The translations under genes and the position numbers were made by a program. A model generated the notes under the pieces. It was not told where the DNA came from. It made no database searches and saw only the letters and a program-made list of their open reading frames with translations. Shown here piece after piece: positions 12,561-40,472 of a DNA stretch of 64,000 bases (position 1 is its first letter; each line of letters begins with the position of its first letter). The stretch lies in assembly GCF_964213995.1 (NCBI RefSeq), contig NC_135811.1, positions 77,438,001 to 77,502,000 of the forward strand. Direction: 5' to 3'. This DNA is from Mustelus asterias. Its lineage: Eukaryota.

Positions 12561-12695
12561 GATGTGGAGTTGCCAGCGTTGGACAGGGATAGGCACAATA
12601 AGTAGTTTCACCTGATGAAGGCGCAACCCTCCGAAAGCTCGTGCTACCAAATAAACCTGTTGGACTTTAACCTGGTGTTGTGAGACTACTTACTG
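12561..12695 (+). mobile_element. Penelope-like pLTR fragment with inverted 5' piece and hammerhead motif
   Basis: 10-bp TSD TATTTTTCTC (12551-12560 and 12696-12705); contains CTGATGA...CCGAAAGCTC and the AATAAACCTGTTGGACTTTAACCTGGTGTTG tail. Confidence 0.8.
12609..12643 (+). ncRNA. Minimal type I hammerhead ribozyme motif (Penelope-associated; stem II degraded)
   Basis: CAC-CTGATGA-aggcgcaaccctcc-GAAA-GC-TC-GTG: conserved core, stem I CAC/GTG, palindromic AGCT stem III. Confidence 0.65.
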
Positions 12696-15511: not shown

Positions 15512-17342
15512 ATGTTTGTTCCGAGTGTTTGCGGGCTGTGGATTTTGTTAATCTGGCTGCCCGGGATCCTGAGCCAGGATTGCCAGAGGCTGCAGTTACA
15601 GCAAGTCCTTAACAAGAATGCTCAAAGGTCCCTGAGGGACATGGTGAGTTTATGCAGAGGTCCGGGGATTCGAGTGACCAATCTTAACTCGCAGGTTCTC
15701 GGAATAGTCTCCTGTCGAGGAATTGCTGAGATTGAATCTGTATTCTAATAAAAATGTAGAACATCTCCTTGATGGAATGAAAATTGAAGTATTAAAGTAG
15801 AGAAGGAAGTGTGTGGAAATGTGAAACACTTTATACTTAGAGTGATTCAGTTGGATGGTCAGTTAAATATGTGAGAGATAAAATACTTATGCAAGTTCTT
15901 GAGCACTTTCCTGGTTTTGGGGGCACGTTTCTGAGAGTAAGGACCGCTTGTGAAGTGTGCGCTTGGAGCCGGTTCTGACATCATTCTGTCCTGTTGCAGG
16001 GAGGTCCCTTCCCATTCCAGTGTATAACAACGAGAGAATCACTGAAAACCAAATCCCTGGACCTGCACCAGCTCATCAAGAGGTTACAGGTGAGTGTGCA
16101 CTTTGCAACCTGTCTGATCATTCTGTTCATGCTGCCAGGTGTAATAGATATGTGGGGAATGTGTACACATCCCCAACAGTAGGAACAATGTAAATGACAT
16201 TTTAAAGGCAAAGGCTTTATTTTGTTGACAATCATAAGACTGAAAATTTAATGTTGAGCATTTTGGGGAACCGACAGACATTCTGCGGATTACTTTGTCC
16301 CTCTTCTCTCCACTTGCCCCAAATTGCTTCAAGTTAGTTCGCCAAAAGAGGAAGATAACAGGAACAAGTTTGATAATGATCAATATTGCCACCACAAAAG
16401 GCGGTATTGACTTTTTAAATTCGAGCTTCTTAAACTTCTACAGCTGTAGATATACAGAGTCAGGGAGATATACAGCACGGAAACAGACCCTTCGGCCCAA
16501 CTAGCCCACGGCGACCAGGTTCCCTAAACTGAAATAGTCCCATTTGTCTGCGTTTGACCCATATCCCTCTAATCTTTTCCCTAACCATGTACTTCCAAAT
16601 GTCTTTTAAATGTTGTAATTGTCCCCGCCTCTACCACCTCCTCTGGCAGCTCATTCCATACACGCACCACCCTCTGTGTGAAAAAGCTGCCCCTCAGGTT
16701 CCTTTTAAATTTTTCACCTCCCCCGTAAACCTATGCTCTCTAGTTTAGGACTCCCCTACACTCCTGTATCCAATCTGACATTACTCGGACCACTGGACAA
16801 AGTTGATCAAGATCACGTTGTAGTCTCAGATAACCTTCTATTAAAATAGTCAGTAAAAGGAGAAATGTCCTCACCAATGTCGTTATGTATATTTTGTCCA
16901 GACTCAGGACAGGATCCAGATTGTCCATCAAACCCTGCGCCACATCAACAAGATCTACAGCATGAATCTGGGCTCAGTCACATGGGCCCAGGACAAAGTG
17001 GAACATTTCCGGCTGCTCCTGGATCGGCAGCTCAGTGAGCTGGAAGAATGTGTCAGGAACCCGGGATCCAGGCTGAGGAGAAACTCCACCATTCACAATT
17101 ACTTTAGGAAACTGGAAAAGTTTCTCAAACAGCAGGTGGGACAATGGATAATTGACTGTGTGATTACCGGCATGTAGATTATTTCACCCCATTGAAATCT
17201 GTTCATTCTCTAATCCATGTCCCTCAATGTTTCCATTTCTCAGGGATTCAGTGAGTGTGCCTGGGAAATAATCCGCACGGAGACCAGAGGCCGATTACAA
17301 CAGCTCCTTCTCATAACGGCACAAATCAGCGGAAGCAATTAA
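15512..17342 (+). CDS. Type I interferon, copy 3 (4 exons, 184 aa)
   Basis: Exons 15512-15643, 16000-16089, 16902-17135, 17244-17342; GT-AG, open frame. Confidence 0.95.
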
Positions 17343-19274
17343 AGAATTTCTAACGATATATTTAATGAAGACTGGGGAACAGTGATTATTTATTTAAAGA
17401 TTGTAGAATTTTTATAGAAGGATTATATTGTTCAGTCATCTGCACAAGCCGGTTTCCCAGTGTGAGATTGGCCATTGTACAACGTAATATCATAACGAAA
17501 TAATAATATAACTTTTTAATATTTAACTTGTGAGTCTAATATTTATACCTGGATGCACTGTGTGAATATATTTCAAATCTAAGAGTATTTGATGAATGCG
17601 AGAGAGGCTGCAAGATATATATTTATTGACACCAGTTTTATATTGTAATAGACTGTATTTATTGGCATCAAATGTGTCCCAAATTGCAGTTTTACAATAA
17701 ATATTTTGAACTTTGAATTTCATGATGTTGTCTTCGTTTCCAAATTGATGTCGATGTCGGCTGGGTGTTTCTGTTCATCTTGTTTGAGAGATTTAAGTCA
17801 TTGGGTTATGAAGTTTGTGCACAGCGCCAAACCCTTTGAGCCAGAAATTCCGAAATCAAGTTTGGAATGACTATGTCAGTTCTGGAAATGATGTTTATTA
17901 GCGATTCAAATGAATTACTTCCGCACTATTGTCCCAAAGGAAAAATAAGTGTGTGCAGATACGAAACAAAACATCGAAATATGTGTCTCTTGTTAATAGC
18001 TACAGAATAGAAACTGGTACATTTCGAGAAGTTGCATTTACTTCTTTGAGCCCGGGATTAGCTATGCTGTCCTCTGTCAGAACCGAAATATATTCAATTG
18101 CTGTTCAAATGCACACCCAGTATCAATGAGCACCAGGTGATCTACTCAGGTTATAGACCATTAGTGTAACAGCATAGTAGAAACATACTCCATTCTCAAT
18201 ATTTAACCGTTTCTTAACCTGAACACTTTGATGCTAAATACATGATCAGTTTTCTTGTTTGACTGTGATGTGTTTGCAATTTTTGATTGCTTGAAATCAT
18301 ATATAAATGCAAACAAATATCTATTGAAGTTTTTCCGATTGTTTGCAACTCAGATTTACATCGGGTCATTGTATTTTTTTCAAGAATCAAACATTTTGGC
18401 TAAATATTACATGATACAAAATTATTCAATTATTCGCAAAACCGAAGTCAATCAAATGGAAATAAAACGGCATTGTTATAGAGAAAAAATAATAAAGTCA
18501 GCTCAAACAAACCCCTCAATATATCGAGAAATACAAGTATAAGCAGAATGTATAATGATTACTGACTGTGAAGCTTAGCTTGCCATTCAGGGTGGCACCA
18601 TAACACAATCAGCAGATGTTCAGGGGGCAATAAATAGTTTGTTAGCGATCTGTCGTCCAGATGTGACCTGATTGTTTTCGGGGGAATGTGTCTCCTGATA
18701 ACGTAACGCTTCCATTTGGTAGGAAGGGGTTTCCACTGGGAATTCATCTCAAAGCCCTGTTTACACATTGATGATCATCTCTTAGCAAGAAATTGCATAG
18801 TGCAAAGATTTTGTGATATCCAATGAAACGCTGACCATTAATGAGCACAAAGTGTATCTTTCCACTTATTGGTTAACAAGAATGAAAGTGCATACCTGTC
18901 ATCTGCATTATTTCTCGGATTTCCCTCCAGTGCGAGATTGCTTTGCGGCACTGTGTCTTTTTGGAGCACGTACAACTATGCATATCATTAAAGCATGATC
19001 ATTTTTTAAAAATTGTATACTATTTCATATACACGTAGTGAAGAGAAAAATCTGCGTTGCCCACATCATTATCATTTCTCACCATTTATTTGGCCATCAG
19101 GGATTTTCCAATGCATGTTGCATTTCACCCCGTCATCGACACAACAATGTAGGATATGTTTTTGAAAGGCATTTGCCATATGAAGTTGAGAATGGCGGTC
19201 GGTAGAATTGGAATGAGCCAGTGAGATTCTGCAAGTCCAGGAGGCAAGCTGTGGGGGTTACCGATAGTGTGACA

Positions 19275-19370
19275 TTTGCTACCAAATAAACCTGTTGGAC
19301 GTTAACCTGGTGTTGTTAAAACTCTTACTGTGTTTACCCCAGTCCAACGCCGGCATCTCCACATCATGAC
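19275..19370 (+). mobile_element. Penelope pLTR 3' remnant at a deletion junction in the copy 3-4 spacer
   Basis: CTACCAAATAAACCTGTTGGAC...CCCCAGTCCAACGCCGGCATCTCCACATC; more than 1 kb of the normal spacer is missing here. Confidence 0.7.
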
Positions 19371-20218: not shown

Positions 20219-22030
20219 ATGTTTATTCCGAGTGTTTGCGGGCTGTGGATTTTGTTAATCTGGCTGCCCGGGATCCTGAGCCAGGATTGCCAGAGGCTGC
20301 AGTTACAGCAAGTCCTTAACAAGAATGCTCAAAGGTCCCTTAGGGACATGGTGAGTTTATACAGAGATCCCGGGATTCGAGTGACCAATCTTAACTCGCA
20401 GCTTCTCGGGATACTCTCCTGTCGAGGAATTGCTGAGATTAAATCTGTTCTCTTCCAAAAATGTAGAACATCTCCTTGATGGAATGCACATTGAAGTTTC
20501 AAACTATAGCAGGGAGTGTGTGGAAATGTGAAACAGTTTTTACTAAGAGTGATTTATTTGGATGGTCAGTAAAATATGTGAGAGATAAAATGCTTCAACA
20601 AGTTGTTGAATGACCGTGTTGGTTTTGGGGGCAAGTTTCTGAGAGCAAGGACCGCTTATGAAGTGTGAGCTTGGAACCGGTTCTGACATCATTCTGTCCT
20701 GTTGCAGGGAGGTCCCTTCCCATTCCAGTGTACAGCAACGAGAGAATCACTGAAAACCAAATCCCTGGACCTGCACCAGCTCATCAAGAGGTTACAGGTG
20801 AGTGTGCAATTTGTAACCTGTCTGATCATTCTGTTATAAGATATGTGGGGAATGTATCCACAACCTTAAGAGTTGGAACAATATAAATGATTTTTAAAGG
20901 CAAAGACTTTATTTTGTTGATTGTCGTAAGACTGAAAATTTAACGTTGAGCATTTTGGGGACTGATAGACATTCTGCGGAATAGTTTGACCTTCTTCTCT
21001 CCATTTACCCCAAAATACTGTCAGTATCAGATTTGCTCGCCAAAAGAGGAAAATACCAGTAACCAGTTTGATAATGATCAAAATTGTCACACAGAAAAGA
21101 CGGTGTTGACTTTTGAAATTCGAGATTCTTACACTTTTACAGCGTAATCGTGGAATCAGTGAGATATACAGCACGGAAACAGGCCCTTCGGCCCGAATCG
21201 TCCATTGCGAACAGGTTTCCTAAGCTTAACTGGTGCCATTGGCCTATGTTTGGCCCATATCCCTCTAAACCTTTCCTGCGCATGTACCTGTCCAAATGAC
21301 TTTCAAATGTTGTATGAAATCCTGCTTTTGCCACCTCCTCTGGGAGCCCATTCCATATACGCACCACCGTCTGTGTGAAAAAGTTACCCCTCACGTCCCT
21401 TTTCAATCTTTCCCCTACCCCGTAAACCTATGCCCTCTAGTTTTGGACTCCCCAACACTTCTCTACTCGATCTGCCATTTCTTGGACCAGTGACCCAGTT
21501 GAGCAAGATCACGTTGTGGTCTTAGATAACCTTCTTTTAAAATAGTCAGCTAAAGGAGAACTGCGTTTACTAATGCCATCGTGTGTATTTGTCCAGACAC
21601 CGGACAAGATCAAGATTCTCCATCAAACCGTGCGCCACATCAACAAGATCTACAGTATGAACCTGGGCTCAGTCACATGGGCCCGGGACAAAGTGGAACT
21701 TTTCCGGCTGCTCCTGGATCGGCAGCTCAGTGAGCTGGAAGAATGTGTCAGGAACCCGGGATCCAGGCTGAGGAGAAATTCCGCCATTCACAATTACTTT
21801 AGGAAACTGGAAAAGTTTCTCAAACAGCAGGTGGGACAATTGACTGTGTGATTACCGGCATGTCATTTCTTTCACCCCATTGAAATCTGTTCATTCTCTA
21901 ATCCATGTCCCTCAATGTTTCCATTTCTCAGGGATTCAGTGAGTGTGCCTGGGAAATAATCCGCACGGAGACCAGAGGCCGATTACAACAGCTCCTTCTC
22001 ATAACGGCACAAATCAGCGGAAGCAATTAA
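20219..22030 (+). CDS. Type I interferon, copy 4 (4 exons, 184 aa)
   Basis: Exons 20219-20350, 20708-20797, 21597-21830, 21932-22030; exon 3 begins with divergent TPDKIKILHQTVRH. Confidence 0.95.
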
Positions 22031-23253
22031 AGAATTTATATCGATATATTTAATGAAGACTGGGGAACAATGATTATTTATTTGAAGATTGTAGAATTTT
22101 TATAGAAGAATTATATTGTTCAGTCAGCTGCACAAGCCGGTTTACCAGTGTGAGATTGGCCATTGTACAACATAATATCATGATGAAATAATAATATAAC
22201 TTTTTAATATTTAATTTATGAGTCTAATATTTATACCTGGATGCACTGTGTGAATATATTTCAAATCTAAAAATATTTGGTAGATGCGAGAGCCTGCAAG
22301 ATATATATTTATTTACACCAGTTTTAAATTGTAACAGACTGTATTTATAGGCATCCGAGATGTCCCAATTTGCAGTGTCACAATAAATATTTTAAACTTT
22401 GAATTTCATGGTGTTGTCTTCGTTTCCACACTGATGTCCATGTCGGCTGGATGTGTTTCTGTTCATCTTGTGTGAGAGATTTCAATCATTGGGTTATGGA
22501 GTTTGTGCGGCCCAGTGCACAGCGCCAAAACCTCTGAGCCAGAACTTCCGGAATCAAATCCCATGCCAAGGCTTTGTCGGTTTTGGAAGCGATGCTTATG
22601 AGCGGATTCAAATAAATTACTTCCCCACTATTCCCCAAAGGGGAAATAAGTGTGTGCAGATACGAAACAAAACATCGAAATATGTGTCTCTTGTTAATTG
22701 CCACAGTGTAGATACTGGTACTTTTTCAGAAGTTGCATTTATTTATTTGGGATTAGCTGTGCTGCCCTCTGTCAGATCCACAATGTCTTCAGTGGCTGTT
22801 CAAATGCAGACCGACTATTAGGCTGTTGATCTACTCAGGGTATAGACCATTAGTTTAAAAAGTATTGTAGAAACATACTCCTTTCTAAATACTTAACCGT
22901 TTCTTAACCTGAACAATTTGATGTTAAATACATTGTCAGTTTTCTTGTTTGAGTGTGTGATGTGTTTGCATTTTTGATTTCTTGAAATCATGCATGAATG
23001 CAAACTAGTATCTATTGAGGAGATCCCGACTGTTCACAACTCAGATTTATATCGGGTCATTGTATTTTTTCAGGATTCAAACATTTTGGCTAAATATTAC
23101 ATGATACCAAATGATTCAATTTTTTGCAACACCAAAGTCAATTAAATGGAAAGAAAACTGCATTGTTATGGAGAAAATTTAACAATGTCAGATCAAACGA
23201 AACTCCACAATATATCGAGAAATACAAGTCTAATAAGAGTAGTTGATAGTTAC

Positions 23254-23942
23254 TGAAGACGGGAACGGGTTAATGAACTTTGTAATATTTGGAGATTTGT
23301 AAAAAGCATTGTAGAACTTGTTTTCATGTCTGTAGAATTTGTTTTCGTGTATCCAAAAACAGATAAGAGAAGCAGCTGTCCCTGCTGTTGTACACAAGTT
23401 TATGATTTTCCCAGCTAGCTGTGTTCAGGAATGTGGCTAACCCAGCTAGTATCTATTTTGTGTTCTCTTATATTATGTACTTCTGTTTAACACGGTGGAG
23501 CTTACATGCATGCCTTCTGTGATCGTATAATAATAGATTCATATATATTTATTATATACTATTTATCCTTACTGATATAAATTGTTATATAGGCCCCTGT
23601 ACTTCAGTTGACTTGTTTGTGCAAACTTATAATCTTGTATGCTGGATAAACAAACCACAGATGTCCGCCACATAGAGGCGACAGAACAGACAGTTGCAGC
23701 CTTGAGATGGCTACGATTACACGGACTACGCGAAGGACAGAACCGCCGATGCAGCAATAATCATGAGAAAATGCGGACGTGACCAGGGGTGAAAATATAT
23801 GTCTAAATATCTGCTCTTAACTTGTATTTGGGGAGAAGTTTAGAGAACCTCTTTAGGATCGGAGTTCTCCCACAAGCTTGTGAAAATAAACTGCTGTACT
23901 TTGACTCACGACTAGTCTCAGAGGTATTATTTACCGACAACA
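23254..23942 (+). repeat. ERV 5' LTR
   Basis: 689 bp, TGAAGAC...GACAACA, AATAAA at about 23885. Confidence 0.95.
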
Positions 23943-23945
23943 AAT

Positions 23946-23963
23946 TGGTGCCGAAACCCGGGA
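23946..23963 (+). promoter_or_regulatory. Primer binding site, tRNA-Phe
   Basis: TGGTGCCGAAACCCGGGA is the exact complement of the 3' end of vertebrate tRNA-Phe(GAA); it lies 3 nt after the LTR. Confidence 0.92.
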
Positions 23964-24391
23964 TCTGTTTATGGGTCTGGTCGAATGGCCACGACCGGGA
24001 CACCAGAATAGAATACCAAACTTAATAGGGTGGGTCAAACTACAGTAGGTGGTCATCTGTGATGAGAGAGTGTGAGAGTGAAAGATGTCTGAACTGAGCA
24101 CATATGGACAAGGAGTCAATTGACTCTAACACACAGCCTTAGACAGGTTGTTATGAGGAGAAATCCCCTACGCGATGGTCAGGACCATGAAGTGGGTGTA
24201 GAGTCTGGAAAAAGGTTGCCTGAGGTGTGATGTTCAGACGTGAGTGAGAAAGAGACTGTCTGAGTGATCGCCAGAGGGATCTGATCGCCCCTGACAGGTA
24301 TCACTGGACTCTGATAAGAGTGACCTCGGAGGGGGAGAGCGAGAAGGGAGAACAGAAGACTCCAGGTGGTGAGTATAAACTTATTGGTGTT

Positions 24392-25735
24392 ATGGCGGGA
24401 CAAGGACAGTGGGGACCCCCGGGATCCCTGATAAACGAATATATGACTAAGAGGGACAAATTCATTAAACAGATGAGCAAAGGGGGGTGGGATTCATCCC
24501 ACCCGCTAGACCAACAACGGAAATGGTTGGAAAAGGAAAAGAAAGACAGAACTAAGAAAATTGGAGTTCTCTTAGTTCACCAATTGGCCGGATTAACTGA
24601 ACAGGTCTCAATCTCAGGTAAGAAATGGGCTGATTACAAAGCAAAAATTAAAATGCTGGAAGCACGCAATAGAGAATTAGAAAAGAGAAGCCAACTTTTA
24701 GAGGACCCCGGCTGGGGATCCTTGCCTCCCTATGGGCTGGCCGTACAACCCACGGCACCAGTGGGAGACTTCGACCCGATGAGGAAGAGGTCCATGATCT
24801 CGCTCCCATACCTCGGGGCGGGACATTACAACATCCCATGGCTCAATACAAACCCTTTACCCCAGGAGAAAGACAACAGGTTTTGGCATCCCTGGAAGGC
24901 TCCAGCCCCGGAGTGGCAATAGCAAATTTTAGGCAGAACTAGACACCATTTGGGTTGGACACCAATTACATTTGCGGGATATACACCAGTTGGTACGAGC
25001 CGCTTGCCCACAGGACAGGTGGAGACTACTGGGTGACAGGGCGGACCAGGCTGACGTCGCCATCAGAGCCCGGTTTTATTACCAAGGCGGAAGGTGGACG
25101 TTCGCGACAGAGACAAACGCCGAGATCGATGAAATGATGGAACCATTTAATTGGTTTAAGGCAGCAGTCCAGCGAGTATTGGACAATGCACCAACCAACT
25201 GGACCAGAATTACCAATACTAACCAACAAAGGGGTGAAGGAGCCTCCGAATTCGGGGAGCGACTCTTCAAAGTATATCAAGAATGTTCCGGAATGCCCGA
25301 TAATGCCCGAACAGATAGAGCCTTTCTACAAGCATTTAAGGATGGGCTGTCACCAGCTCACCAAAAAATCCTTAAAATGGGAGTCCTCAGTACCCGGGAT
25401 TACAATGAATTAGTAGAATGGACATCTGGAATTAGAGACGGACCAGATGAGAAACCATACCCACGAATAAAACAGGAAAATGTTAGTGCAAACAGTGAAG
25501 GAGCTAAACCAAAGGGTGCGTGCTATAATTGTGGGAAACCGGGTCACTTTGCCAGAGACTGTAGAGCTCCAAAGTGGGGTAGAAGGAAGGCCCCTACCTG
25601 CCAGTTTTGCAATAAGGATGGCCACACCGAGGCCACCTGTTGGAGCAAACACAGCAGACCGAGTCAACTCCTCCCCCCTCCCCACACCGAGGAGGGAGGG
25701 AACTGGCGTGAGGCAGCCCCCGCAAGCCTGGGCAG
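24392..25735 (+). pseudogene. gag: ERV gag (frameshifted)
   Basis: MAGQGQWGPPGS..., MHR-like QQRGEGASEFGERL, two CCHC knuckles CYNCGKPGHFARDC and CQFCNKDGHTEATC; split across ORFs 24320-24922 and 24972-25994. Confidence 0.88.
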
Positions 25736-28700
25736 AAAGGTGGGTAGAATCTACGTGTCTGCACTAGTAGGGGGCAGACAATGTGAAATGCTGGTGGACA
25801 CAGGAGCCTCCATATCAATCACCAATCTACCCTTGTCCATCACTAATAAAATGATCTGTGTAAGAGGAATTAATGGACAGAAGACCCCTGCCTACTTAAG
25901 CGAAACCACCCTAGTAGAAATTAATAACCTGTATATACCTATGCGATTTTATTATGTAAAAATAATGAAGGAACTATTATGGGAAATGACCTGATGAAGG
26001 AGTACAAAGTCTTACTAGATTGCAGGAAGGGCGAATTGATTTGGCCCCGCCCCCATGGGAGAAAGGACAGGGTAGGAACATATGTAAACTATCTAGGAAC
26101 CGTCCATGCAGCATCTGCAACAGGACGCGACTGGCAGTTAGAAGATAATGGATTTGGTGCCATCTGCGCCTCTATCCCCGGGTATGGGCGGAAACGAAAC
26201 TAGATACTGGATTAGTCAAAACTGACCCCATAATAGTGGAAGGACCAGAACATAAACCACATCGACAATACCCGATTAAGCCCAAAGCCAAAAAGGCATT
26301 TGAGGAAATTGCGATGGGATTAGTAAAAAGGGGGATCCTACAGGAAACCACTAGTCCCACCAACTCCCCCACCTGGCCGGTGCCTAAACCGGACGGGAGC
26401 TATAGATTAACCATTGATTATACAGCTTTAAATAAAGTGACCCCCAAGCTACACCCCATCGTGGCTAGCCCCTCCACCATTTTAAACGGGTGGTCACCAT
26501 CCCATGGAATCTTTACAGTATTAGATATCACCAACGGATTTTAGTCCATTCCCCTGGATCCTAATTCACAAGATAAATTTGCATTTACCATAGGCGATAA
26601 ACAGTACACATGGACTAGGCTCCCGCAAGGCTTCCACAACAGCCCGGCTATATTTCACCGGGTAATGAGTAAGATATTAGAACAAGTAGAAGTCCCAAAA
26701 GGGAGCACAATTCTGCAGTATGTAGACAACATCTTAATAGCCTCCAAAACTAGAGCAGAACATCAGATGGCACTATACTCAGTCTTGAAGCACTTAGAAG
26801 AACAGGGACTAAAGGCGAGCCCCAGGAAGCCCCAAATAGGGAAAGCGCAGGTGTTATATTTGGGACACCTGATATCCCAGGGAACCAAAGAAATGCCAGT
26901 GGACAGGGAAACAGCTATACAGCAAATGCCAAGACCAGTAACCGTCCAAGGGGTAAGGAAGGTTTTGGGATTGTTTAATTACAGCCGCGACTTTATACCG
27001 GAATTCGCCTGACTAACCGAACCAATACAAAGGCTAGTAAAAGGTGGGAAACCCACTCTAGAAGTTATAGAGTGGGGATCAGAACAGGAAGAGGCATGTA
27101 GCAAACTAAAAGCAGAACTAATGACAGCTCCGGGACTTGGACTGCCTGACGCTGGTAAAGATTTTCACATCTATTGTAATAATGAAGGGGGATATTACTC
27201 GGCAGTAGTCATACAGGTCCATGGGGATAAGCAGTGACCCATGGGTTATTATTCCACAGCGGAGGGCCCCGTAGTAACCGGGTTACCCAGATGTATAGCC
27301 ACACTGGATTGCGCTGCAGGGGCAGTAAAGATCAGCGAGCCCATTGTAATGACGGGGAATATTGTCTTGCACGCCATACATACCTTGGTGGAAATGCTGA
27401 ACACAGGAAAATTACAGTCTGTCTCAAATATGAGAAGGGCGAAGCGGGAGGCAGTGCTTCTCCCACCCACTAAGTCCATCACCATTGTACGAGATATGGG
27501 AACGAACCCCGCAGAAGGAATGTTAGGTGAAGGGAACCCACACAACGTGTGGGGACGTAGATGAAGAGGTAGAGGAAGGTAGAATAAAGGATGTGCTCCT
27601 GGAGGCACCAGATATTGTCCTGTTTGTGGATAGATCATGGAAATATGTAGATGGGTCACCATGAACAGGATGAACAGTAGTGAATGCGCACTTACTAATT
27701 GTTCAAGCAGGAAGGATAGAGGGAGGCATGTCAGTGCAAGTGGCGGAACTAGTAGCCTTAACTCAGGCTTTTACCGAGGCGGTGGGGAAAATGGTCAACA
27801 TTCACACCAATAGTAGATATGCATTCGGAATTGTGCATGTCTATATGACCGTTTGGGGGAGAAGGGGATTTGTCACAATGGGAGGCACTACAATTAAACA
27901 TGGCCAGATAATAGCAACCTTACTGGAAGCCAGCAACCTCCCATCGGAAACCACGGTATTGAAGGTAAAGGCGCACCAAAAGGAACCAGACATGCAAAGT
28001 CCTGAGTGGCATATCTTTAAGGGAAACCAGGCAGCCGACATAGCGGCATGATCTGCCTTGGAAGCAAGGGAAATGCAAGCCTTGCCGGCTGCCTCGGCCA
28101 AAGTCGAACCCCCGATAGACATCTCACAGCTACATGCTGATACCCCTGAAGAAGAACGTGCGAGTTGGAAAGCTCAAGGAGCTACACCTGATGGAGGGGG
28201 GATATGGAGATTAAATGATAAAGTTCTAGCGCCAGAATGTATCCAGCATACTCTGATGCGGTTACATCATGGGCTGTTGCATGTGGGAAGGGATACCATG
28301 ATGACCAGTATGGGGAAGGAATGGTCGTGGAAAGGAATGGGATGGGACATTGCCCGGTATTGTCACCGGTGCATAACCTTTGCACAGTATAACCCCGGAA
28401 GAGCCGTAAAAATCAAGATGGGACACCAGCCCCACCCTAAATGTCCCTGGGAACATCTACAAATCGACTTTACAGGGCCTCTTCCGCAGTCACATGGGAG
28501 AACCTACTGCTTGGTAATAATTGACCAATTCACCAGATGGGTAGAAGCATTTCCAATGAAAAACTGTTCTGCCACTACAGTGGCAAGAATACTAGCTGAG
28601 GAAGTTATCCCAAGATGGGGGGGTGCCTTTGCAAATAGACTCCGATCAAGGCACACACTTTACGGGGAAGGTAGTAAAAACTATATGTCAACTGATGGGG

Positions 28701-29270
28701 ATAAAACAGAAATTTCACATACCCTACCACCCTCAAAGCTCAGGAATGGTGGAACATATGAATAGGACACTTAAGACCTCCCTGGCAAAGGCCATGCAGG
28801 AATCAGGGAAGAGATGGACAGAAGTATTACCCGCCATATTAATGAAACTCAGAGCCACCACAAATCGGACCACTGGGCTGACACCATATGAGCTAATGAC
28901 CGGAAGGGCTATGCAACTGCCCAAGTCCATCATTACCCGAGGGGCAGATGTAGGCCCATTACGGGACAGGATTAGACGATATGTATTAGAATTAAGCTCG
29001 CAATTAAAAGATATGTGGAAAACAGTACGGGACAAACAAATAGCGGTAGATGAGCACAATGAACTAGAACAGACCCCGGAGTTACCCCCGGCGGGCAGCA
29101 AGGTTATGGTAAAAACATTACCTGGAAAACCTGGGTTCGCCCCCAAATGGAATGGCATCAGTGGAGACACCTGTGCCTGCATAGATATGCAAGGCAGGGG
29201 CATCTGGAAACATTGGACTCAGTTGAAAGAATACACTGGCACCAATTGGAAAACATGTAATGTGCTCAAT
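25736..29270 (+). pseudogene. pol: ERV pro-pol (protease, RT, RNase H, integrase) with stops and frameshifts
   Basis: Protease LVDTGAS...GNDL; RT NSPTWPVPKPDGSYRLTIDY, WTRLPQGFHNSP, LQYVDN; RNase H QVAELVAL, NSRYAFG, VKAH, GNQAADIAA; integrase LQIDFTG, IDSDQGTHF, SSGMVEHMN. Confidence 0.93.
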
Positions 29271-29996
29271 TCACAGATACGTGAGACGGCTGACCTCCAA
29301 GCAAGCTGAACAGGTTCGTGGGAAGTTGCGCGCGGGCAATATAGCCTTGGAACCATTGTATAACGGTCACGCAGATTATTAGTAAGTGATAAGATGCTTC
29401 TCATGCTGCTTCCCGCGACCCTGGCCCTGTTAGCCATAGCGGGAAAGTATAGATGGAATTATGAGGATTTAGCGATGAAGCACCATGAAGTAACAATGAC
29501 TCTGTCTATTGTATGAACACCTTTGTGTATATGTCTTATCTGTATGCATCACAATCAAATCTGAGCAAGTGCTGGGTCTGTTCACACATTCCCACGCACG
29601 GAGGAAAGGGAGGAAATCCTTTATTCCCTATCCCCTTATCAGCTCTGGGAATGATAGAATGGATTTTAAATCAGAATGGAACCCAGGAAGGGACAAGGAA
29701 ACTGACATTCAAAACCCCATCGGGTACAACCATGCAGAGTACGTTTAATATCAGTAACAGTGATGTTGTTTTAGGGCTAGAGGGTGGAGGGTGCACTTTA
29801 TCGACCTTTAAGAAACATTACCAACCCAGCTATGACAGATCAGATTCCCCACCCAACTTCGTTGTGAAAAATCAACAAAGGGGATCTATCTGCCTGACAA
29901 GAAATGGAACCATACCTGTTGGCTGGAGCTACTGTATACAGTAAGAGTTTTAACAACACCAAGTTAAAGTCCAACAGGTATATTTGGTAGCAAATA

Positions 29997-30033
29997 CCAT
30001 TAGCTTTCAGAGCGCTGCTCCTTCGTCAGATGG
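29997..30033 (-). ncRNA. Minimal type I hammerhead ribozyme motif
   Basis: Minus strand CCAT-CTGACGA-aGGAGcagcgCTCT-GAAA-GC-TA-ATGG: core intact, stem I CCAT/ATGG, stem II, AGCT stem III. Confidence 0.72.
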
Positions 30034-30191
30034 AGTGGAAATGTGCTCTCAAACAGAGCATAGAGACACAAAATCAAGTTACAGAACTTGTTACAAGTTA
30101 CAAAATCAAGTTACAGAACTTGTTACAAGTTACAGAACTTCTGTAACTTGATTTTGTGTCTCTGTGCCCTGTTTGAGAGCACATTTCCACT

Positions 30192-30228
30192 CCATCTGAC
30201 GAAGGAGCAGCGCTCCGAAAGTTAATGG
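30192..30228 (+). ncRNA. Minimal type I hammerhead ribozyme motif
   Basis: CCAT-CTGACGA-aGGAGcagcgCTCC-GAAA-GT-TA-ATGG; one change in stem III. Confidence 0.65.
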
Positions 30229-31255
30229 TATTTGTTACCAAATAAACCTGTTGGACTTTAACCTGGTGTTGTTAAAACTCTTACTGTCTTCACCCCAGTC
30301 CAACGCTGGCATCTCCACATCATGGCTACTGTATACAGCAGATTAATGTCACTAATGACGCTTGGGCCATGGTACAACAGGTCACAATCCAGTGCCCCAC
30401 ATGCACTGTCCCGGTTAGCCTCCCCTCCGCTTATGTAAGCAGGATGACTGCATATAATGGTACCTATTTTGTCTGTGGAAACAGTGCCTACCCGTGGCTT
30501 CCCTGGAATTGGGCAGGATCGTGTTATTTGGCATATGTGGCGCCCGATATTCACCAATACACTGACTTACGGGACCACCCCAAGATACACCTGCTTAGGG
30601 TTAAGCGAGCCATTAGTGAGACAGAATGGTTCTTCATGATAGCCTACCCACTTTATGGGACGGCAAAGGCAGCACAGGAACTTATACAGATGGCCTCGAC
30701 CCTAGAGAAAATTGCAAATGAGACTAAAGATGGGTTCGAGGAGGTGAGCACGGCCGTCTCTGAAGCATCAACAGAGGTTGTAGCTATTCGGACTGTGGCG
30801 CTACAGAACCGATTGGCACTCAATTATGTGCTAGCCTCCAAAGGAGGAATATGCGCTATAGTTGGCTCCGAATGCTGACCGTATATTCCAGATGCTTTGA
30901 AGAATATAACTCGCTTGGCAGATCTTATTAAACACGTGGCGAAAACAGGATGAGGGGAACCAATATCACAATTATAGCCCCCCAGGCTGGCTGGGGCAAT
31001 GGTTTGGGTCATGGGGTTCATACCTGAGGCATGGATTGATTATATTAATTGTAATTATAATTGCTTGCTGTGTTTGTATGGCATTATTGAACGCCTGTTG
31101 TAAAATGGTAACAGCGCGGATTATGCCAGGCGCAAGTGTACACGCAGAGGGGGCAGACCTCCTGACAAAGGAGCTGGGCCCATATGCTGATAACATTTGG
31201 TTCTGAATTGGTCCTGGGGCCATGCTTGGGCCTGGCCCTGATCAAAAGGGGGGAA

Positions 31256-31946
31256 TGAAGACGGGAATGGGTTAATGGACTTTGTAATACTTAGAGATTT
31301 GTAAAAAGCATTTTCGAACTTGTTTTCGTGTCTGTAGAACTTGTTTTCATGTATCCAAAAACAGATAAGAGAAGCAGCTGTCCCTGCTGTTGTACACAAG
31401 CTTATGATTTTCCCAGCTAGCTGTGTTCAGGAATGTGGCTAACCCAGCTAGTATCTATTTTGTGTTCTCTTATATTATGTACTTCTGTTTAACACGGTGG
31501 AGCTTACATGCATGCCTTCTGTGATCGTATAATAATAGATTCATATATATTTATTATATACTATTTATCCTTACTGATATAAATTGTTATATAGGCCCCT
31601 GTAACTTCAGTTACCTTGTTTGTGCAAACTTATAATCTTGTATGCTAGATAAACAAACCACAGATGTCCGCCACATGGAGGCGACAGAACAGACAGTCGC
31701 AGCCTTGGGATGGCTACAATTACACGGACTACGCGAAGGACAGAACCGCCGAGGCAGCAATAATCATGAGAAAATGTGGACATGACCAGGGGTGAAAATA
31801 TATGTCTAAATATCTGCTCTTAACTTGTATTCGGGGAGAAGTCCAGAGAACCGCTTTAGGAATCGGAATTCTCCCACAAGCTTGTGAAAATAAACCACTG
31901 TACTTTGACTCACGACTAGTCTCAGAGGTATTATTTACTGACAACA
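31256..31946 (+). repeat. ERV 3' LTR
   Basis: 691 bp, about 30 differences from the 5' LTR by eye; followed by the GTTAC TSD. Confidence 0.95.
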
Positions 31947-32575
31947 GTTACTGACTATGAAGCTTAGCTGTCCATTCAGGGTGGCACTCTAACACAATCA
32001 TTAAATGTTCAGGGGAGACTAAATAGTTTGTTGGCGATCAGTCGTCCAGATGTGACCTGATTGTTTTAGGGGGAATGCATCTCCTGATAATGTAACGCTT
32101 CCATTTGGGAAGGGAGGGGTTTCCACTGGGAATTCATCTCAATGCCCTGTCTACAGATTGTTGATCATCTCTTGGCAAGAAATGGCATCATGTAAAGATT
32201 TTGTGAAATCCAATGAAACGTTGACCATTAATGAGCACAATTTCTTGAAATTTCCTTCAGTGCGAGATTGCTTTGCTCCACTGTGTCTTTTTGGAGCACT
32301 TGCTATTATGCATTAAACAATATCATTTAAAAAATATGCATGCTATTTTATATATATGTAGTGAAGAGAGAAATCTGCATTGCCCACATTATTGACATTT
32401 CTCACTATATTTTTGGCCATCGGGGATTTTCCATTGCGTGTTGTATTTCACCCCATCATCGACACAACATTTCACAGTAAGTTAATTGCAGTGTTAATGC
32501 AAGTCTTACTTGTGACTAATAAATAAACATTAAAAAAATGTAGGATATGTTTTTTGACAGACATTTGCCCTATGC

Positions 32576-33775
32576 CAGTGGAGGGCATAGAAGGTCTGCA
32601 GAGAGATTTGGACAGGCTGAGTGAGTAGGCGAGGATCTGGCAGATGGAGTATAACGTTAACAAATGCGAGGTTATTCACTTTGGTAGAAATAATAGCAAA
32701 TTGGATTATTAAATAAATGGAAAGAAATTACAACATGCTGCTGTGCAGAGGGACCTGGGGGTCCTTGTGCATGAGACGCAAAAACCCAGTCTGCAGGTGC
32801 AACAGGTGATCAAGAAGGCAAATGGGATGTTGGCCTATATCGCAAGGGGGATAGAATATAAAAGCAGGGATGTCTTGCTGCATCTGTACAGGGCATTGGT
32901 GGGGCTGCAGCTGGAATACTGTGTGCAGTATTGGTCCCCTTATTTGCGGAAGGATATATTGGCCTTGGAGGGCATGCAGAGAAGGTTCACCAGGTTGATA
33001 CCAGAGATGAGGGGTGTTGATTATGAGGAGAGACTGAGCAGATTGGGTTTGTACTCATTGGAATTTAGAAGGCTGAGGGGGGATCTTATAGAGACCTATA
33101 AGATAATGAAGGGGCTGGATAGGGTAGAGGCAGAGAGATTCTTTCCACTTAGAAAGGAAACTAGAACTAGAGGACACAGCCTCAAAATAAAGGGGGGGTC
33201 AGTTTAGGACAGAGTTGAGGAGGAACTTCTTCTCTCAGAGGGTGGTGAATCTCTGGAATTCTCTGCCCACTGAAGTGGTGGAGGCTACCTCGTTGAATAT
33301 GTTTAAATCATGGATAGATGGATTCCTGATCGGTAAGGGAATTAGGGGTTATAGGGATCAGGCGGGTAAGTGGAACTGGTCCACTTCAGATCAGCCATGA
33401 TCTTATTGAATGGCGGGGCAGGCTCGAGGGGCTAGATGGCCTACTCCTGCTCCTATTTCTTATGTTCTTCCCAAAGGGTACAGCGCGCCACACTGGTGCG
33501 GCAAGAGAGGATGGCAAGTGTGGCGGGAAGATTCAAGGACAATCAAAGAAACATTTAAACATGGATTAGATATTTTTCCAAAGGGATTGTTTTATACTTT
33601 CTGGATGTCCCATGATCATATTATAAAGTAGTTGTGTTCTATGTTATGAATCAAACACTGCTAGGAGTTGTTTTTTGGTTTTGAATATATTTCTTATCAA
33701 TAAAAAATTCGGTGTGGCGCGAGCAAATTTTTATTCCGAAAGTGCGGCCCAGTGAAAAAAGTTTGGGAACCACTG
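32576..33775. mobile_element. hAT-type MITE with a CR1 inserted in its left TIR
   Basis: 8-bp TSD CCCTATGC (32568-32575 and 33776-33783); TIR CAGTGG[CR1]TTCCCAAA ... TTTGGGAACCACTG. Confidence 0.8.
32582..33468 (+). mobile_element. CR1-like LINE 3' fragment
   Basis: QRDLGVLVH...LEYCVQYWSPYLRKDILALEGMQRRFTRLIP...RRNFFSQRVVNLWNSLP; TCTTATGTTCT tail. Confidence 0.9.
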
Positions 33776-35250
33776 CCCTATGCAGTCGAGAATGTCGGTG
33801 GATAGTTGAAAAACCAACTGAGCACAGCGCTCCACAAACATTCCCAATACTCAACAGTGCAGCAAACATGACAGCGCGAAATAGAGACTCATTGTTGCCT
33901 CTTCCTATTGGATATGCCAAGTAGATTAACTGTTTTGCAGGTTTCAGCTGGACCTGCTGATCGCATCTCTCTAAATTCTATCCTCGTTTGGAAGTCATTA
34001 CCCACCTGATCCTATATTTTCCTCAATATCTAAACAGCTGTAAGTTTGGAAGTGAAATTCGTTCCTCGCTATTTGATGGCGAGGAAAGAAAGACAGGAAG
34101 TATCAGGAAAAGTTAACATTCACCCGATAGATCCTGCCAGAAGAGTGGAGAGGGTAAAGGAGAATCAGGCGGGAGACCCAAGAGTTGCTGTGTCACCTTG
34201 ACCTGAAATCTCTCACAATGATTCAGTGAGAGAGTAACATTGGTCCTCTGGTCATTAAACCTATTTTAAATGTTCAATGAGGCTGGAGTTAGAAGTTAAA
34301 CTTCAAGCATCGTGTCTTTATATTAACATTGGTGTCTCTACAAAGAAGCAAGTTTCAATTGGTTAAGTTCGTGAGTAAGTGAGCCAAACATGCCAGGAAT
34401 GTTTCCAAAGTCAACATCAATATGATTACTGCTCTTGGCTGTAATTGTGACAGCTGAGTTATAATTGGTTGTGAGGTAAAGAGTGGTAAATTACCCAGTA
34501 TTGTATACAGTTTCTGCACATTATCACTTGTCAAATTATCACACTGATGCATTTTTGCATTCGTTACGTGTGTGTTGTATGAGAATAATTCAGGACCCAC
34601 AAAACTCTCTGCTCACTAACCAGTCACACGCATTCACTTTGGTCTGTGCTTGTGAAATATCAGAGTCTGAGCACTTAGCTCCATAATAAATGATTGTCTG
34701 CTGGGGAGGAATGAGGGAGGCAGACACTTGGCTAAAAGGGGAGAGTGGAAGCAACTCAAAACCGCAATCCCCGATTGGCAGCCCATTGGTTTTCAGTGGA
34801 AGTCAAATTGCATCATTCCGTCGAGTTGTTTAGTGAATATTGAAAACAGATGAGCTTGCTCTAATTACACAGTCAGGACATTGCACCCTAAATCCTGGAG
34901 TTTAAATTAGCTTTCAGGATTTTTAGTGCAGCATCCAAAATGGCAATAAATCAATTCACTTCTCACCTTCCCCGCCCCATCAAACATCCCTGTTAGAACC
35001 CAGCCTTTTAAACCCCCAATCCAATTCCTAACAGACTAAACTGACTGTGAGCGCAGCATTTCCCAATATAAGGTGGTTCCGCATTTAGGAATCTTAAAAC
35101 ATATGAAATGATTTTTTAAAATGAATTGCTTATCAAAATCTGGCCAACAAAGAGGCAACAGATGTAAAATTTTGGGTAACATCTGTCCAGCTTTTAATGT
35201 CGAAGTATAGGTTTGCATCCTAATTTATTAGAGAGAAAATTCATTCTTAA

Positions 35251-35380
35251 TTAAGCAGAAAGTGAAAAAGGTTTCGAATGAAGAAGTCGTTTCTGGAAAC
35301 AAGTTAAAAGATTCCCTGAAAACACACCGCGGTTAGAAGCAAAATCGATTCGTTTTGTAACGTCAAAGGAATATCCTGGT
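35251..35380 (+). promoter_or_regulatory. IFN promoter block, copy 5
   Basis: GAAAGTGAAA at 35258-35267 plus the same downstream motifs. Confidence 0.7.
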
Positions 35381-35518
35381 TCATACCTTCAAATGGACAC
35401 AATGGATGAATATTCCTTTCAATCCAGCAGCGAAGGAGTTCAGCTGGTGTTAACATTGTGTTCGGCACTGAACCCGGATCCAGTCACTTTCTGTGATTTC
35501 TAATCGCTGCTTTAAAAC

Positions 35519-37310
35519 ATGTTTGTTCCGAGTGTTTGCGGGCTGTGGATTTTGTTAATCTGGCTACCCGGGATCCTGAGCCAGGATTGCCAGCGGCTGC
35601 AGTTACAGCAAGTCCTTAACAAGAATGCTCAAAGGTCCCTGAGGGACATGGTGAGTTTATACAGAGATCCGGGGATTCGAGTGTACAATCCTAACTCGCA
35701 CCTTCTCGGGATAATCTCCTGTCGAGGAATTGTTGAGATTAAATCTGTTCTCTTCCAAAAGTGTAGAGCATCTCCTTGATGGAATGCGCATTAAAGTGTT
35801 AAAATATAGAAGGAAGTGTGTGGAAATGTGAAACACTTTTCACTGAGTGTTTCAGTTGGATGGTCAGTAAAATATTTAAGCAAGTTGTGGAATGACTGTG
35901 CTGGTTTTGGGAGCAAATTTCTGAGAGTAAGGATCGCTTGTGAAATGTGAGCTTGGAGCCCGTTCTGACAGTCATTCTGTCCTGTTGCAGGGAGGTCCCT
36001 TCCCATTCCAGTGTATGGCAACGAGAGAATCACTGAAAACCAAATCCCTGGACCTGCACCAGCTCATCAAGAGGTTACAGGCGAGTGTGCACTGTGTAAC
36101 CTGTCTGATCATTCTTTTAATACTGCCAGGTATAATAGATATGTGGGGAATGTATCCACACCCTCAACAGTAGAAATAAATAATGTTGAAGGCGAACGTG
36201 TTATTTTATTCGTTTGTGTAAGAATTAAAGTTTGTTGCTAAACCTTTTGGTTCGAAATGTTGGAGCCTTCGTATACTCTGGACGGGCCAACATTTCTTCT
36301 CTGTACTTACAGGAAGATGTTAGTTCGCTAATGTGAACATGTTAATTAGCCCACAACAGAATGTCAGGATCCAGTTCGGTATTAACTAATATTTCCAACT
36401 GCAACAACGAGGATGTGGTTTTTCATTCTGTCTGCTTACTTACCTACATTTGGAAAACCGTATTAAAATAAGAACTAACTGGATTGTGGTCCGTGTCTGT
36501 GAGTTATGCTCTTTTGCTCGCAGGCCAAAAGGGAACAGGTCCTTCTCTCTAATATCATTGTGTATATTTTGTACAGATAGGATCCAGCTTGTCTATCAAT
36601 CCCTGCCTTGTTTGGGGGGGGGGGGGGGACGGACGGATAAACTGAACTATAGTCAGTCTTTCTCCTCTCCACTTTCCCCAAATTGCTGACAGTATCAGAT
36701 TAGCTCGCCAAACGAGAAGATACCAGAAACCAGTTTGATGATGAATATTGTCAGCGGCAATTACGGTGCTAACTTTTAAATTCGAGTTTCTTACACACTT
36801 GCAGCTGCAGATGTCTATTAAAATAGTCAGTTAACTAAGAAACGTTTTCTCTAATGTCGTTGTATATATTTTGTCCAGACTCAGGACAGGATCCAGATTC
36901 TGCATCAAACCCTGCGCCACATCAACAAGATCTACAGCATGAATCTGGGCTCAGTCACATGGGCCCAGGACAAAGTGGAACATTTCCGGCTGCTCCTGGA
37001 TCGGCAGCTCAGTGAGCTGGAAGAATGTGTCAGGAACCCGGGATCCAGGCTGAGGAGGAACTCCACCATTCACAATTACTTTAGGAAACTGGAAAAGTTT
37101 CTCAAACAGCAGGTGGGACAATTGACTGTGATTACCGGCATGTAGTTTCTTTCACTCCATTGAAATCTGTTCATTCTCTAATCCATGTCCCTCAATGTTT
37201 CCATTTCTCAGGGATTCAGTGAGTGTGCCTGGGAAATAATCCGCACGGAGACCAGAGGCCGATTACAACAGCTCCTTCTCATAACGGCACAAATCAGCGG
37301 AAGCAATTAA
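35519..37310 (+). CDS. Type I interferon, copy 5 (4 exons, 184 aa; GC donor at intron 2)
   Basis: Exons 35519-35650, 35991-36080, 36879-37112, 37212-37310; open frame, but intron 2 starts CAG|GCGAGT rather than GTGAGT. Confidence 0.88.
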
Positions 37311-37509
37311 AGAATTTCTATCGATATATTTAATGAAGACAGAAAACAGTGATTATTTATTTAAAAATTGTAGAATTTTTATAGGAGGATTATATTGTTC
37401 AGTCAGCTGCACAAACCGGTTTACCAGTGTGAGAAATACAATTAGACAGATTATAAATTTTCTAAATGCAGTCTGCTATGTTTATATTTATTTGTATATG
37501 TATTATATC

Positions 37510-37896: not shown

Positions 37897-38565
37897 TACC
37901 TGATTGTGAATTCACAATCACTAATCATCGTTAATCACCACCCAACTGAAAGCTATAAATCTGTCCTCTGTGTTTCGCGGCCAGGTGTCTCTGGAGAGGG
38001 AGCATGCGGTGTCCACGGGCGCGGTTGACGCCTTCCGCGACCGCTGGGCGCCGCAGGGGCTGGGGTGTATTATCGACCCCGATAATCACCTTTTGGTTTG
38101 ACGTTTTAAGTTTCCTTTCGACTTTGATTTTGGTTCGGGCTGTTCCCCCCTTCCTTTTGGGGAGCCGCCCCTTTTACTTTGTCCCTAAGTTAATTTGAGT
38201 TTGTTTACTTGATTGGTGCCGAAAAAGCTACCTGATTGTGAATTCACAATCACTAATCATCGTTAATCACCACCCAACTGAAAGCTATAAATCTATGTCC
38301 TCTGTGTTTCGCGGCCAGGTGTCTCTGGAGAGGGAGCATGCGGTGTCCACGGGCGCGGTTGACGCCTTCCGCGACCGCTGGGCGCCGCAGGGGCTGGGGT
38401 GTATTATCGACCCCGATAATCACCTTTTGGTTTGACGTTTTAAGTTTCCTTTCGACTTTGATTTTGGTTCGGGCTGTTTCCCCCTTCCTTTTGGGGAGCC
38501 GCCCCTTTTACTTTGTCCCTAAGTTAATTTGAGTTCGTTTACTTGATTGGTGCCGAAAGAGCTAC
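37897..38565 (+). repeat. About 334-bp tandem duplication containing a Tx1/L1-like 3' end
   Basis: ORFs 38004-38198 and 38338-38532 are near-identical; VSLEREHAVSTGAVDAFRDRWAPQG matches the fragment at 45.5-45.9 kb. Confidence 0.85.
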
Positions 38566-39544
38566 CCAACTCGGGTCACCCAGGGCTGATTGCTCCGTGT
38601 GTATTCGCATAAATAAATGTAACATTGAAAACTGGCACTTGGCCAAGAAATTAAGTGGTATGTTGGAGGTGACTTCGCTCCTGTGAGTCCATGCTGACAT
38701 GTACTCAGGCCTGAAATTTATTAAATTGCTGTTGGGATACTCCAGGGTTGTTGCCGTAAATATTTGCAGTAAACATATTGGGATTATTTGCCATTAGTAC
38801 ATTCTTTTACAGTGTACAACGGAAACCCTTAATTCGTTCCTCCACTGCTATTTCTTAATTGTCGACAAGCGTCCTTCCTTAAATATATTAGTTTCCTTCT
38901 GGAAATAATGTGAAGGTAAACAAACCTCTATTAGTGACTCCAGAAATCAGGAGAACTCCGGCATTTCATATTTCAAAATGGAAAATTTCACTGAATTTTA
39001 TTTTTTAATGAATGGAATATTTGTCATTGTTTACAATGGACAATAACAATCGAAATATTCACAACATTGAATTCCACCGCATGGAAACCAAAGTAAAAAC
39101 AATATTATAGAGAACTTACATTTCAGCAACTGAAAATCAACAATTGCCTCTAAAGACAGCAAAAGATAAGTATGAAAATAACTGCCAGTTATTGGCTCTT
39201 GTGTTCAGGCTCGCAGTCAACAAAGCAGCAGATGATTGGGGCACGGGGTAAATGTTACCCATGGAAGCTTAAATTAATGTAATTAAATCATTAAGTAGTC
39301 ATCAGTCATTCTATCCTATAATGTTTTAATGCAATGTCATTCACATTTTGCCATGCATTGACAATGAGCTGTGATTAGAGCACGAATACTCTAATGTTCA
39401 CTTATGGACATACTCTCGAGCTCTCTGTATGGATGCAAGATATACCAAGGCAAGTGAAGCCTACAGCAGACTTTGAACATTAGCTTGGTAATGAAGAGGA
39501 CTAAGACTGCCAACCAAACTGAAAGTCTACAGAGCCAAGTCCGG

Positions 39545-40230: not shown

Positions 40231-40304
40231 GGATGGTGGGGAGAGACAGTCTGCCCACTCTGCTCTATGCATGCAGATCTTGAACTGTGTACCAGCATCA
40301 TGCC

Positions 40305-40472
40305 AGGTAGCTCAACCACTCCCACCCCCCCCCCCCCCCCCCCCGAGGTAGCTCAACCACTCCCCCCCCCCCCCCCCCCGAGGTAGCTCAACCACCCCCC
40401 CCCCCCGAGGTAGCTCAACCCCCCCCCCCCCCGAGGTAGCTCAACCACCCCCCCCCCCCCCCCCCCCGAGGT
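40305..40472. repeat. Minisatellite [GAGGTAGCTCAACC(A)Cn], about 5 units
   Basis: Fixed core separated by variable poly-C tracts. Confidence 0.85.

Follow-up and report, generated by a model that had tools for sequence, protein, structure and literature searches.

An endogenous retrovirus (ERV) that lies among interferon (IFN) genes raises an obvious question: has it become part of their regulation, or has it simply been carried along with them? We addressed this question in a 64,000-nucleotide stretch of the genome of the shark Mustelus asterias (contig NC_135811.1 of assembly GCF_964213995.1, positions 77,438,001 to 77,502,000, forward strand; hereafter the window, from whose first letter all positions are counted). 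The window contains five tandemly arranged type I IFN genes, and a provirus of the form long terminal repeat (LTR)-gag-pro-pol-env-LTR stands between copies 4 and 5. An earlier note on this DNA had described the element as a complete provirus that entered the germ line within an antiviral locus, and had suggested that its 3' LTR could act as a promoter or enhancer of copy 5 and that IFN induction could co-activate viral transcription. The analysis performed in this study leads us to consider the provirus very probably a tolerated, near-neutral passenger; nothing found here points to LTR control of copy 5.

The locus constitutes a natural experiment, in which one of five near-identical IFN genes lies downstream of a provirus, and the four near-identical paralogues, together with a relative in which the site is probably empty, would provide built-in controls. 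The IFN clusters of mammals are likewise rich in retroelements, judging from the available parts of the published accounts: LTR elements make up 3.99% of the pig type I IFN locus, with one LTR located within 1 kb of IFNE (PMC4221479), and young L1 elements are enriched in the human IFN-alpha domain (PMC13732488). As described there, these clusters contain mostly retroelement fragments and intronless genes, whereas the shark array consists of intron-containing genes and carries a full-length provirus. A literature search, which had most subscription journals outside its reach, did not turn up any published case of a shark IFN locus with a provirus in it.

Structure and integration site of the provirus

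Self-comparison of the window revealed a single long repeat pair in this region, namely the two LTRs, which are 95.66% identical (28 substitutions in 689 aligned sites, plus two 1-nt indels). Pfam domains follow on the plus strand in the order zf-CCHC, RVP, RVT_1, RT_RNaseH_2, RNase_H, Integrase_H2C2, rve and TLV_coat. With direct LTRs, a 5-bp target-site duplication (TSD; GTTAC on both ends), a primer-binding site (PBS), a polypurine tract and the order gag-protease-reverse transcriptase (RT)-RNase H-integrase-env, connection domain included, the element is a provirus, and both the limits given for it in the earlier note and its orientation along the IFN genes proved exact (Table 1). The 18 letters of the PBS form part of the tRNA-Phe(GAA) capture probe given in PMC7810713. 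The 5' LTR starts 1,223 nt past the stop codon of copy 4, and from the end of the 3' LTR it is 3,572 nt to the start codon of copy 5, in agreement with the spacing of about 1.2 and 3.6 kb reported before.

Both flanks of the provirus are directly joined, with no provirus between them, in array units 1, 2 and 3, i.e. in 3/3 units which retain the site, and unit 2 has a single GTTAC at this point. A homologous site after copy 5 was looked for and not found. The TSD and the empty paralogous sites had also been claimed previously; together with a probable empty site in a relative (see below), they bear out the proposed germ-line integration into an IFN array that already existed. With the insertion, copies 4 and 5 are about 13.5 kb apart instead of about 4.8 kb. 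Without the provirus this interval would measure 4,791 nt, which is in the range of the other three (2,877-5,599 nt).

Contigs of four shark runs (X1 and X3 from organism A, X5 from organism B, and X19, a run of 33 million letters) were aligned to positions 23943-37450. An assembly artefact was judged unlikely in view of the TSD, the diverged LTRs and the flanks matched in run X1.

Decay of the viral genes

The description of the provirus as complete holds for its layout and fails for its coding capacity, with gag, pro, pol and env all interrupted. Compared with P0003, a gag-pol-like protein of Heterodontus francisci, gag shifts frame once and is stopped once, both near 24.8-24.9 kb, and neither of its pieces gave a Pfam match to Gag_p30 (PF02093) at E 0.05. 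The pro-pol region is interrupted by stops at six in-frame positions and by four changes of frame (as judged against the database protein P0002, 76% identical, and the more distant P0005), the catalytic motif of RT is degenerate, and env is split by a nested palindromic repeat of ~360 nt, whose depth in run X1 exceeds 1e6 (against ~17) and is far above that of the rest of the provirus. Production of full-length viral proteins from this provirus is impossible. The element is neither intact nor replication-competent: it has no open gag, pol or env frames, and its LTRs (95.7% identity) are not near-identical.

The palindromic repeat family is also represented by shorter pieces elsewhere in the window (12609-12699, 14624-14753 and 19274-19334) and is present in very many copies in each of the four shark runs. 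A clear target duplication was not seen at these repeats, which might be of Penelope-like origin. A further observation concerns contigs of the ERV family in runs X1 and X3 (both from organism A) that are joined, at high depth, across a gap of ~1.3 kb in pol (27646-28944); this joint was not seen in runs X5 or X19. A deleted and probably non-autonomous ERV subfamily may have spread in organism A.

Order and age of events

The LTRs have diverged by a Kimura two-parameter (K2P) distance of 0.042, or 0.027 when CpG sites are excluded. The 198 nt to the right of the provirus differ from the corresponding stretches of units 1-3 at 20-24 sites, against 28/689 between the LTRs. The array, whose flanking paralogues are thus more diverged than the LTRs, predates the insertion, and its duplications were not driven by the provirus. 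An ERV as the driver of array expansion had been a separate candidate, and it was ruled out since units 1-3 are empty and older.

Run X1 is essentially identical to the window in unique sequence (0 differences in 358 nt and 2 in 876), and contains, at single-copy depth, a 155-nt piece identical to this provirus copy; X1 may be the source sample. No junction-spanning piece of X1, X3 or X19 occurred among the matches listed (32 of 162,539 pieces). One X19 contig spans the exon 1-intron 1 boundary of copy 5, which means that this run cannot be treated as RNA.

In five pieces of single-copy depth, X5 differs from the window at 61 of 1,523 sites (4.0%). One X5 contig (368 nt, likewise at the depth of a single copy) matches 31946-32144 except at 7 of 198 sites, leaving 170 letters unaligned on the LTR side (this side was taken from the coordinates of the record, and another record was used to check the coordinate convention). 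Seven differences are more in line with an orthologue than with a paralogue, and organism B thus seems to lack the insertion at this site; on this one contig an empty orthologous site is probable, the alternative being a converted paralogue in B. Because the divergence of the LTRs is about that between A and B, the insertion appears to date from about the A-B split or somewhat later. Absolute ages, calculated with four published or assumed shark substitution rates (drawn from PMC4422223 and PMC9826928), extend from 13 to 131 million years, a range too wide to use. The locus may nevertheless serve as a dated marker, with a five-copy IFN array that predates an ERV wave common to a relative of ~96% identity.

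Passenger or regulator

The course of events that we favour can be outlined as follows. A member of a multi-copy shark ERV family, primed by tRNA-Phe, entered the germ line within the intergenic part of unit 4 of the existing array and left a 5-bp duplication there. Its landing site, past the poly(A) signal of copy 4 and upstream of the intact promoter of copy 5, left no host part broken. The provirus would then have been methylated in the germ line, as its CpG bias suggests; it has lost all of its reading frames, taken up a second insertion in env and escaped deletion by LTR-LTR recombination. It would now act as a near-neutral spacer in the copy 4-5 interval, while copy 5 would be driven, like the other copies, by its own promoter of the interferon regulatory factor (IRF) type.

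The content of the LTRs and of the spacer behind them is consistent with this outline. A consensus scan gave 0 matches in either LTR to the interferon-stimulated response element (ISRE) or the IRF element (IRF-E), with up to one mismatch, and 0 to the gamma-activated site (GAS), although the preferences of shark factors may differ. Each LTR has one AP-1 match, one palindromic kappaB-like match and a preserved poly(A) signal; the kappaB-like count is not above chance, since it was reached by 38 and 48 of 200 shuffles in the two LTRs. Transitions separate the LTRs at 9 of 23 CpG sites, compared with 14 transitions at 643 other sites (p = 5e-6). Such CpG-biased decay is the usual trace of germ-line methylation, which we infer for this provirus. 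The spacer contains a sense-oriented fragment of a CR1 long interspersed nuclear element (LINE; about 32644-33207), 12 AATAAA/ATTAAA hexamers and one strong splice-donor match at 33365. Copy 5 has ~1.7 kb of upstream sequence in common with the other copies, including the same GAAAGTGAAA (IRF-E-like) and TTCCCTGAA (GAS-like) matches; single matches of this kind are not above chance, and their function is suggested by known IFN promoters.

It seems rather improbable that the provirus forms part of a shark interferon circuit, either by endowing copy 5, through the 3' LTR, with kinetics or a tissue range of its own, or by being transcribed when copy 4 is induced, so that the 157-bp hairpin of its nested repeat would act back on RNA sensors. 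Taken by itself, control of copy 5 by the 3' LTR, acting as an enhancer or alternative promoter through the AP-1 and kappaB-like sites retained in both LTRs or by a start near the R region, is unlikely. The sense orientation is favourable to it, as are a distance over which enhancers act and the splice-donor match in the spacer. Regulation by the LTR is nevertheless disfavoured because ISRE and GAS matches are absent, copy 5 retains its own upstream region, the LTR pair is CpG-decayed, and the AATAAA of the LTR, the 12 further hexamers and the CR1 fragment all precede copy 5; in general, the sequence evidence leans against a regulatory role for the LTRs. LTR enhancers close to immune genes are of a known kind: interferon-inducible enhancers have been co-opted near mammalian immune genes (e.g. 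MER41), and a B2 short interspersed nuclear element (SINE) has reportedly become an enhancer of this type. Here, too, a retroelement lies beside an immune gene. However, the mammalian enhancers have GAS or ISRE motifs along with chromatin and deletion evidence, whereas the LTR in the window has neither motif, and they adjoin interferon-stimulated genes rather than interferon genes themselves. Should the LTR alter copy 5 after all, co-option would extend from the former to the latter, in the oldest lineage of jawed vertebrates.

We regard it as highly unlikely that the provirus is a passive target that is transcribed upon infection, either as the IFN locus opens or by transcription running on from copy 4, into non-coding ERV RNA with a 157-bp hairpin that RNA sensors could detect. 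Its sense orientation, a short distance past copy 4, would suit such transcription, and the complementary arms of the env repeat could supply the hairpin. On the other hand, copy 4 is followed by AATAAA at +352 and +581 past its stop codon (the first lies ~870 nt upstream of the 5' LTR and occupies the same position as in copies 1-3), and another signal is present within the 5' LTR; the palindromic repeat is so abundant genome-wide that this copy would add little, and full-length frames from which protein could be made are absent. Least likely of all, by a wide measure improbable, is that the insertion damps or insulates copy 5 via spreading repressive chromatin and that copy 5 is decaying. 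The CpG decay of the LTRs would be in keeping with it, and, of the five genes, only copy 5 shows a GC donor in intron 2 (36081-36082), a 5' untranslated region (UTR) that is 13 nt shorter next to the ATG (35500-35518) and a different distal 3' UTR, which diverges after 37435 and has AATAAA at +503 instead of ~+354. Introns of the GC-AG type are, however, a normal minor class, the frame of copy 5 is intact and only 7 nt and 3 amino acids away from that of copy 3, and the CpG observed/expected ratio (o/e) of its promoter (0.77) is close to that of copy 4 (0.76). The noncoding peculiarities of copy 5 could alter its expression independently of the provirus.

Several points weigh against the view that the provirus is a neutral passenger. 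The contrast in the CpG test is somewhat inflated, as a CpG in one LTR was enough for a site to be counted, and the CpG o/e of the LTRs (0.65-0.71) is still above that of the window (0.46); moreover, CpG decay reflects the germ line and says little about leukocytes. Both LTRs keep their poly(A) signal and their AP-1 and kappaB-like matches, and copy 5 departs from copies 1-4 in the three noncoding features given above. Near-neutrality is itself read from sequence, and the empty site in the relative depends on one contig, the 170 unaligned letters of which were not seen. Finally, the chance that this family would hit a given 40-kb array is ~0.0004-0.002 (for 30-150 copies and an assumed genome of 3 Gb), an argument that loses weight because a comparable finding could have come from any of the many other ERV families, immune loci or windows.

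Size and affinities of the ERV family

Summed contig depth in 13 interior bins of the provirus amounts to 28-398x single copy in X1 (median 181) and 57-277x in X5 (median 125). As contig depth is not equal to copy number, the IFN exon bins, with five visible copies, were used as a check, and gave 6.8-9.1x in X1 and 4.5-11.3x in X5. These values put the size of the family, in either organism, at between tens and a few hundred copies. According to the available part of a survey of such elements, ERVs with a gamma-type env number >500 in three cartilaginous fish, and young ERV copies in amphibians insert at random (10.1101/2021.11.23.469661).

By score, the RT of the provirus is closest to solved RTs of the murine leukaemia virus (MLV) type (E ~1e-70, compared with 1e-49 for foamy RT). 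The first guess drawn from these scores, a class I epsilon-like ERV, was dropped after two RT trees and an approximately unbiased (AU) test. The trees were quick maximum-likelihood reconstructions with 67 rows (3 of 70 dropped) and 39 rows (8 of 47 dropped), short RT coverage being the reason for dropping rows in both; they include no class II, ERV-L/S or walleye epsilonretrovirus rows, and their deep branches are weak. In both, the window element groups with P0002 (RT identity 76%), P0147 and P0003 (51%), with Shimodaira-Hasegawa-like approximate likelihood ratio (SH-aLRT) support of 98 (67 rows) and 88 (39 rows). These relatives, the Heterodontus francisci protein among them, are database proteins without described biology. 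The RT falls outside a clade of support 99 which unites MLV (L004) with amphibian, reptile, bird and fish class I rows; L004 is the only class I row anchored by search. Forcing the window clade together with 13 class I rows gave p = 0.033 in the AU test, with groups chosen after the tree had been seen. The six foamy-type rows (row L022 being anchored by search as well) form a 100-support clade of their own that excludes the window RT. The window gag has zf-CCHC; foamy Gag is not known to have zinc knuckles.

The env is of the gamma type, with TLV_coat at E 1.2e-12, matches of its transmembrane (TM) piece to 14/16 viral loci and a surface-subunit (SU) motif CWVC; the CX6CC motif is only partly visible, as the frame stops just before its end. 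The viral locus L001, presumably snakehead retrovirus (SnRV), scores best among the viral loci with both the RT core of P0002 (44%) and the gag-pro piece of the window; it is not sister to the window RT in the trees, and forcing the two together gave an AU p value of 0.094. A class III SnRV-related Pol combined with a gamma-type Env has been described in anamniotes (10.1101/2021.11.23.469661). As far as that description goes, the window element has in common with this group a simple gag-pro-pol-env organization, a gamma-type env, a Pol outside the gamma/epsilon retroviruses, a cartilaginous-fish host and multiple copies, but the likeness is one of description and the window RT does not stand firmly beside the SnRV-like row. 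We file the element as resembling the class III SnRV-related group, and that study may already include its lineage. Lineages I-III of CmiERV in the elephant shark are also, by their published description, full-length elements with env and with LTR divergence of a similar order (0.024-0.033, compared with 0.042 here), and lineage I clusters with snakehead retrovirus (PMC4422223). They differ in their holocephalan host, and the available description, on which this comparison is based, mentions no interferon locus. The provirus can be regarded as a new sample of a little-studied retroviral lineage, with a basal RT, a gamma-type env and a tRNA-Phe primer.

Table 1. Features of the interferon array and of the provirus inserted in it (positions within the window)
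Feature	Position	Strand	Remarks
Type I IFN copy 1	1552-3379	+	four exons, 184 aa, intact
Type I IFN copy 2	8089-9913	+	four exons, 184 aa, intact
Type I IFN copy 3	15512-17342	+	four exons, 184 aa, intact
Type I IFN copy 4	20219-22030	+	four exons, 184 aa, intact; AATAAA at 22382
Left TSD, GTTAC	23249-23253	+	matches the lone GTTAC of the empty unit 2 site, 11127-11131
Whole provirus	23254-31946	+	8.7 kb, LTR-gag-pro-pol-env-LTR
5' LTR	23254-23942	+	689 nt, TG...CA; AATAAA 23885; kappaB-like 23861; AP-1 23902
PBS	23946-23963	+	18 nt, complementary to the 3' end of tRNA-Phe
gag, broken	24392-25770 (end approximate)	+	two CCHC-type knuckles
Protease region	25740-26180 (limits approximate)	+	in frame with 3' gag; frame change near 25.95 kb
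pol	26176-29309	+	RT, connection, RNase H, integrase; frame changes near 26.18, 27.54 and 28.62 kb
env, gamma type	29394-31206	+	four pieces; signal peptide, SU CxxC, TLV_coat TM ectodomain, membrane anchor
Nested palindromic repeat in env	29933-30292	unassigned	two 157-nt arms, 94% complementary
Polypurine tract	31244-31255	+	adjoins 3' LTR
3' LTR	31256-31946	+	691 nt, TG...CA; AATAAA 31889; kappaB-like 31865; AP-1 31906
Right TSD, GTTAC	31947-31951	+	
Host spacer, 3' LTR to copy 5 promoter	31947-35068	+	remainder of unit 4, CR1 fragment, 12 hexamers, shared upstream region
Type I IFN copy 5	35519-37310	+	four exons, 184 aa, intact frame; IRF-E-like match at 35258 kept

The interferon array

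In all five IFN genes the exons measure 132, 90, 234 and 99 nt, and any two copies differ at 7-21 of 555 coding nt. Exon 3 matches the Pfam family Interferon; all 22 of its protein matches come from sharks or sawsharks, and 21 of the 22 are named interferon. Copy 4 is 94.6% identical over 184 amino acids to the Mustelus asterias protein P0018, which points to a carcharhiniform host, probably a triakid. Cysteines occupy positions 24, 52, 124 and 157, which gives four in the mature chain. A structure of four exons and three introns is that described for type I IFNs of cartilaginous fish (PMC5332411), in which lineage-specific tandem clusters are reported as usual (PMC6640115). The array has the same exon/intron plan and the same tandem expansion; no difference from these descriptions was found, and it is ordinary for sharks.

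Among the 29 variable IFN codons, 17 are amino-acid-changing, and 10 of these 17 fall in the first half of exon 3 (codons 76-109), over which copy 4 is the most distinct. This variation might result from diversifying selection or from patchy gene conversion.

A sixth, divergent type I IFN was identified at 53142-52728, on the minus strand and facing the array. It consists only of exons 3 and 4, the former with a frame change, and is 42-61% identical, depending on the segment, to most of the shark IFNs tested; tblastn searches with eight shark IFNs did not recover exons 1-2. This remnant is probably a pseudogene. At the other end of the window, positions 1-700 correspond to the shared upstream region of an array unit. 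Judging from this and from the depth of the IFN exons in X1 (~7-9x single copy), more IFN copies may lie to the left of the window.

Other repeats in the window

A Pfam search with 41 frames of the 37.5-64 kb region (40 of the 47 long frames and one IFN piece) found only CR1 RT. A long and fairly young CR1-type LINE ORF2 lies at 41558-44590, downstream of copy 5, with an open piece of 555 amino acids that includes endonuclease and RT domains.

Two tandem units of 334 nt, 98% alike and with a GC-rich core, are located at 37897-38566, and a partial inverted copy lies 7 kb away (45470-45733). Each unit ends near an 11-nt stretch equal to the start of the tRNA-Phe primer site. No Pfam match was obtained near these units, which may represent the end of another mobile element. 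Between them and the CR1 element, at 40290-40476, there is a short tandem array of GAGGTAGCTCAACCA units with poly-C runs between them.

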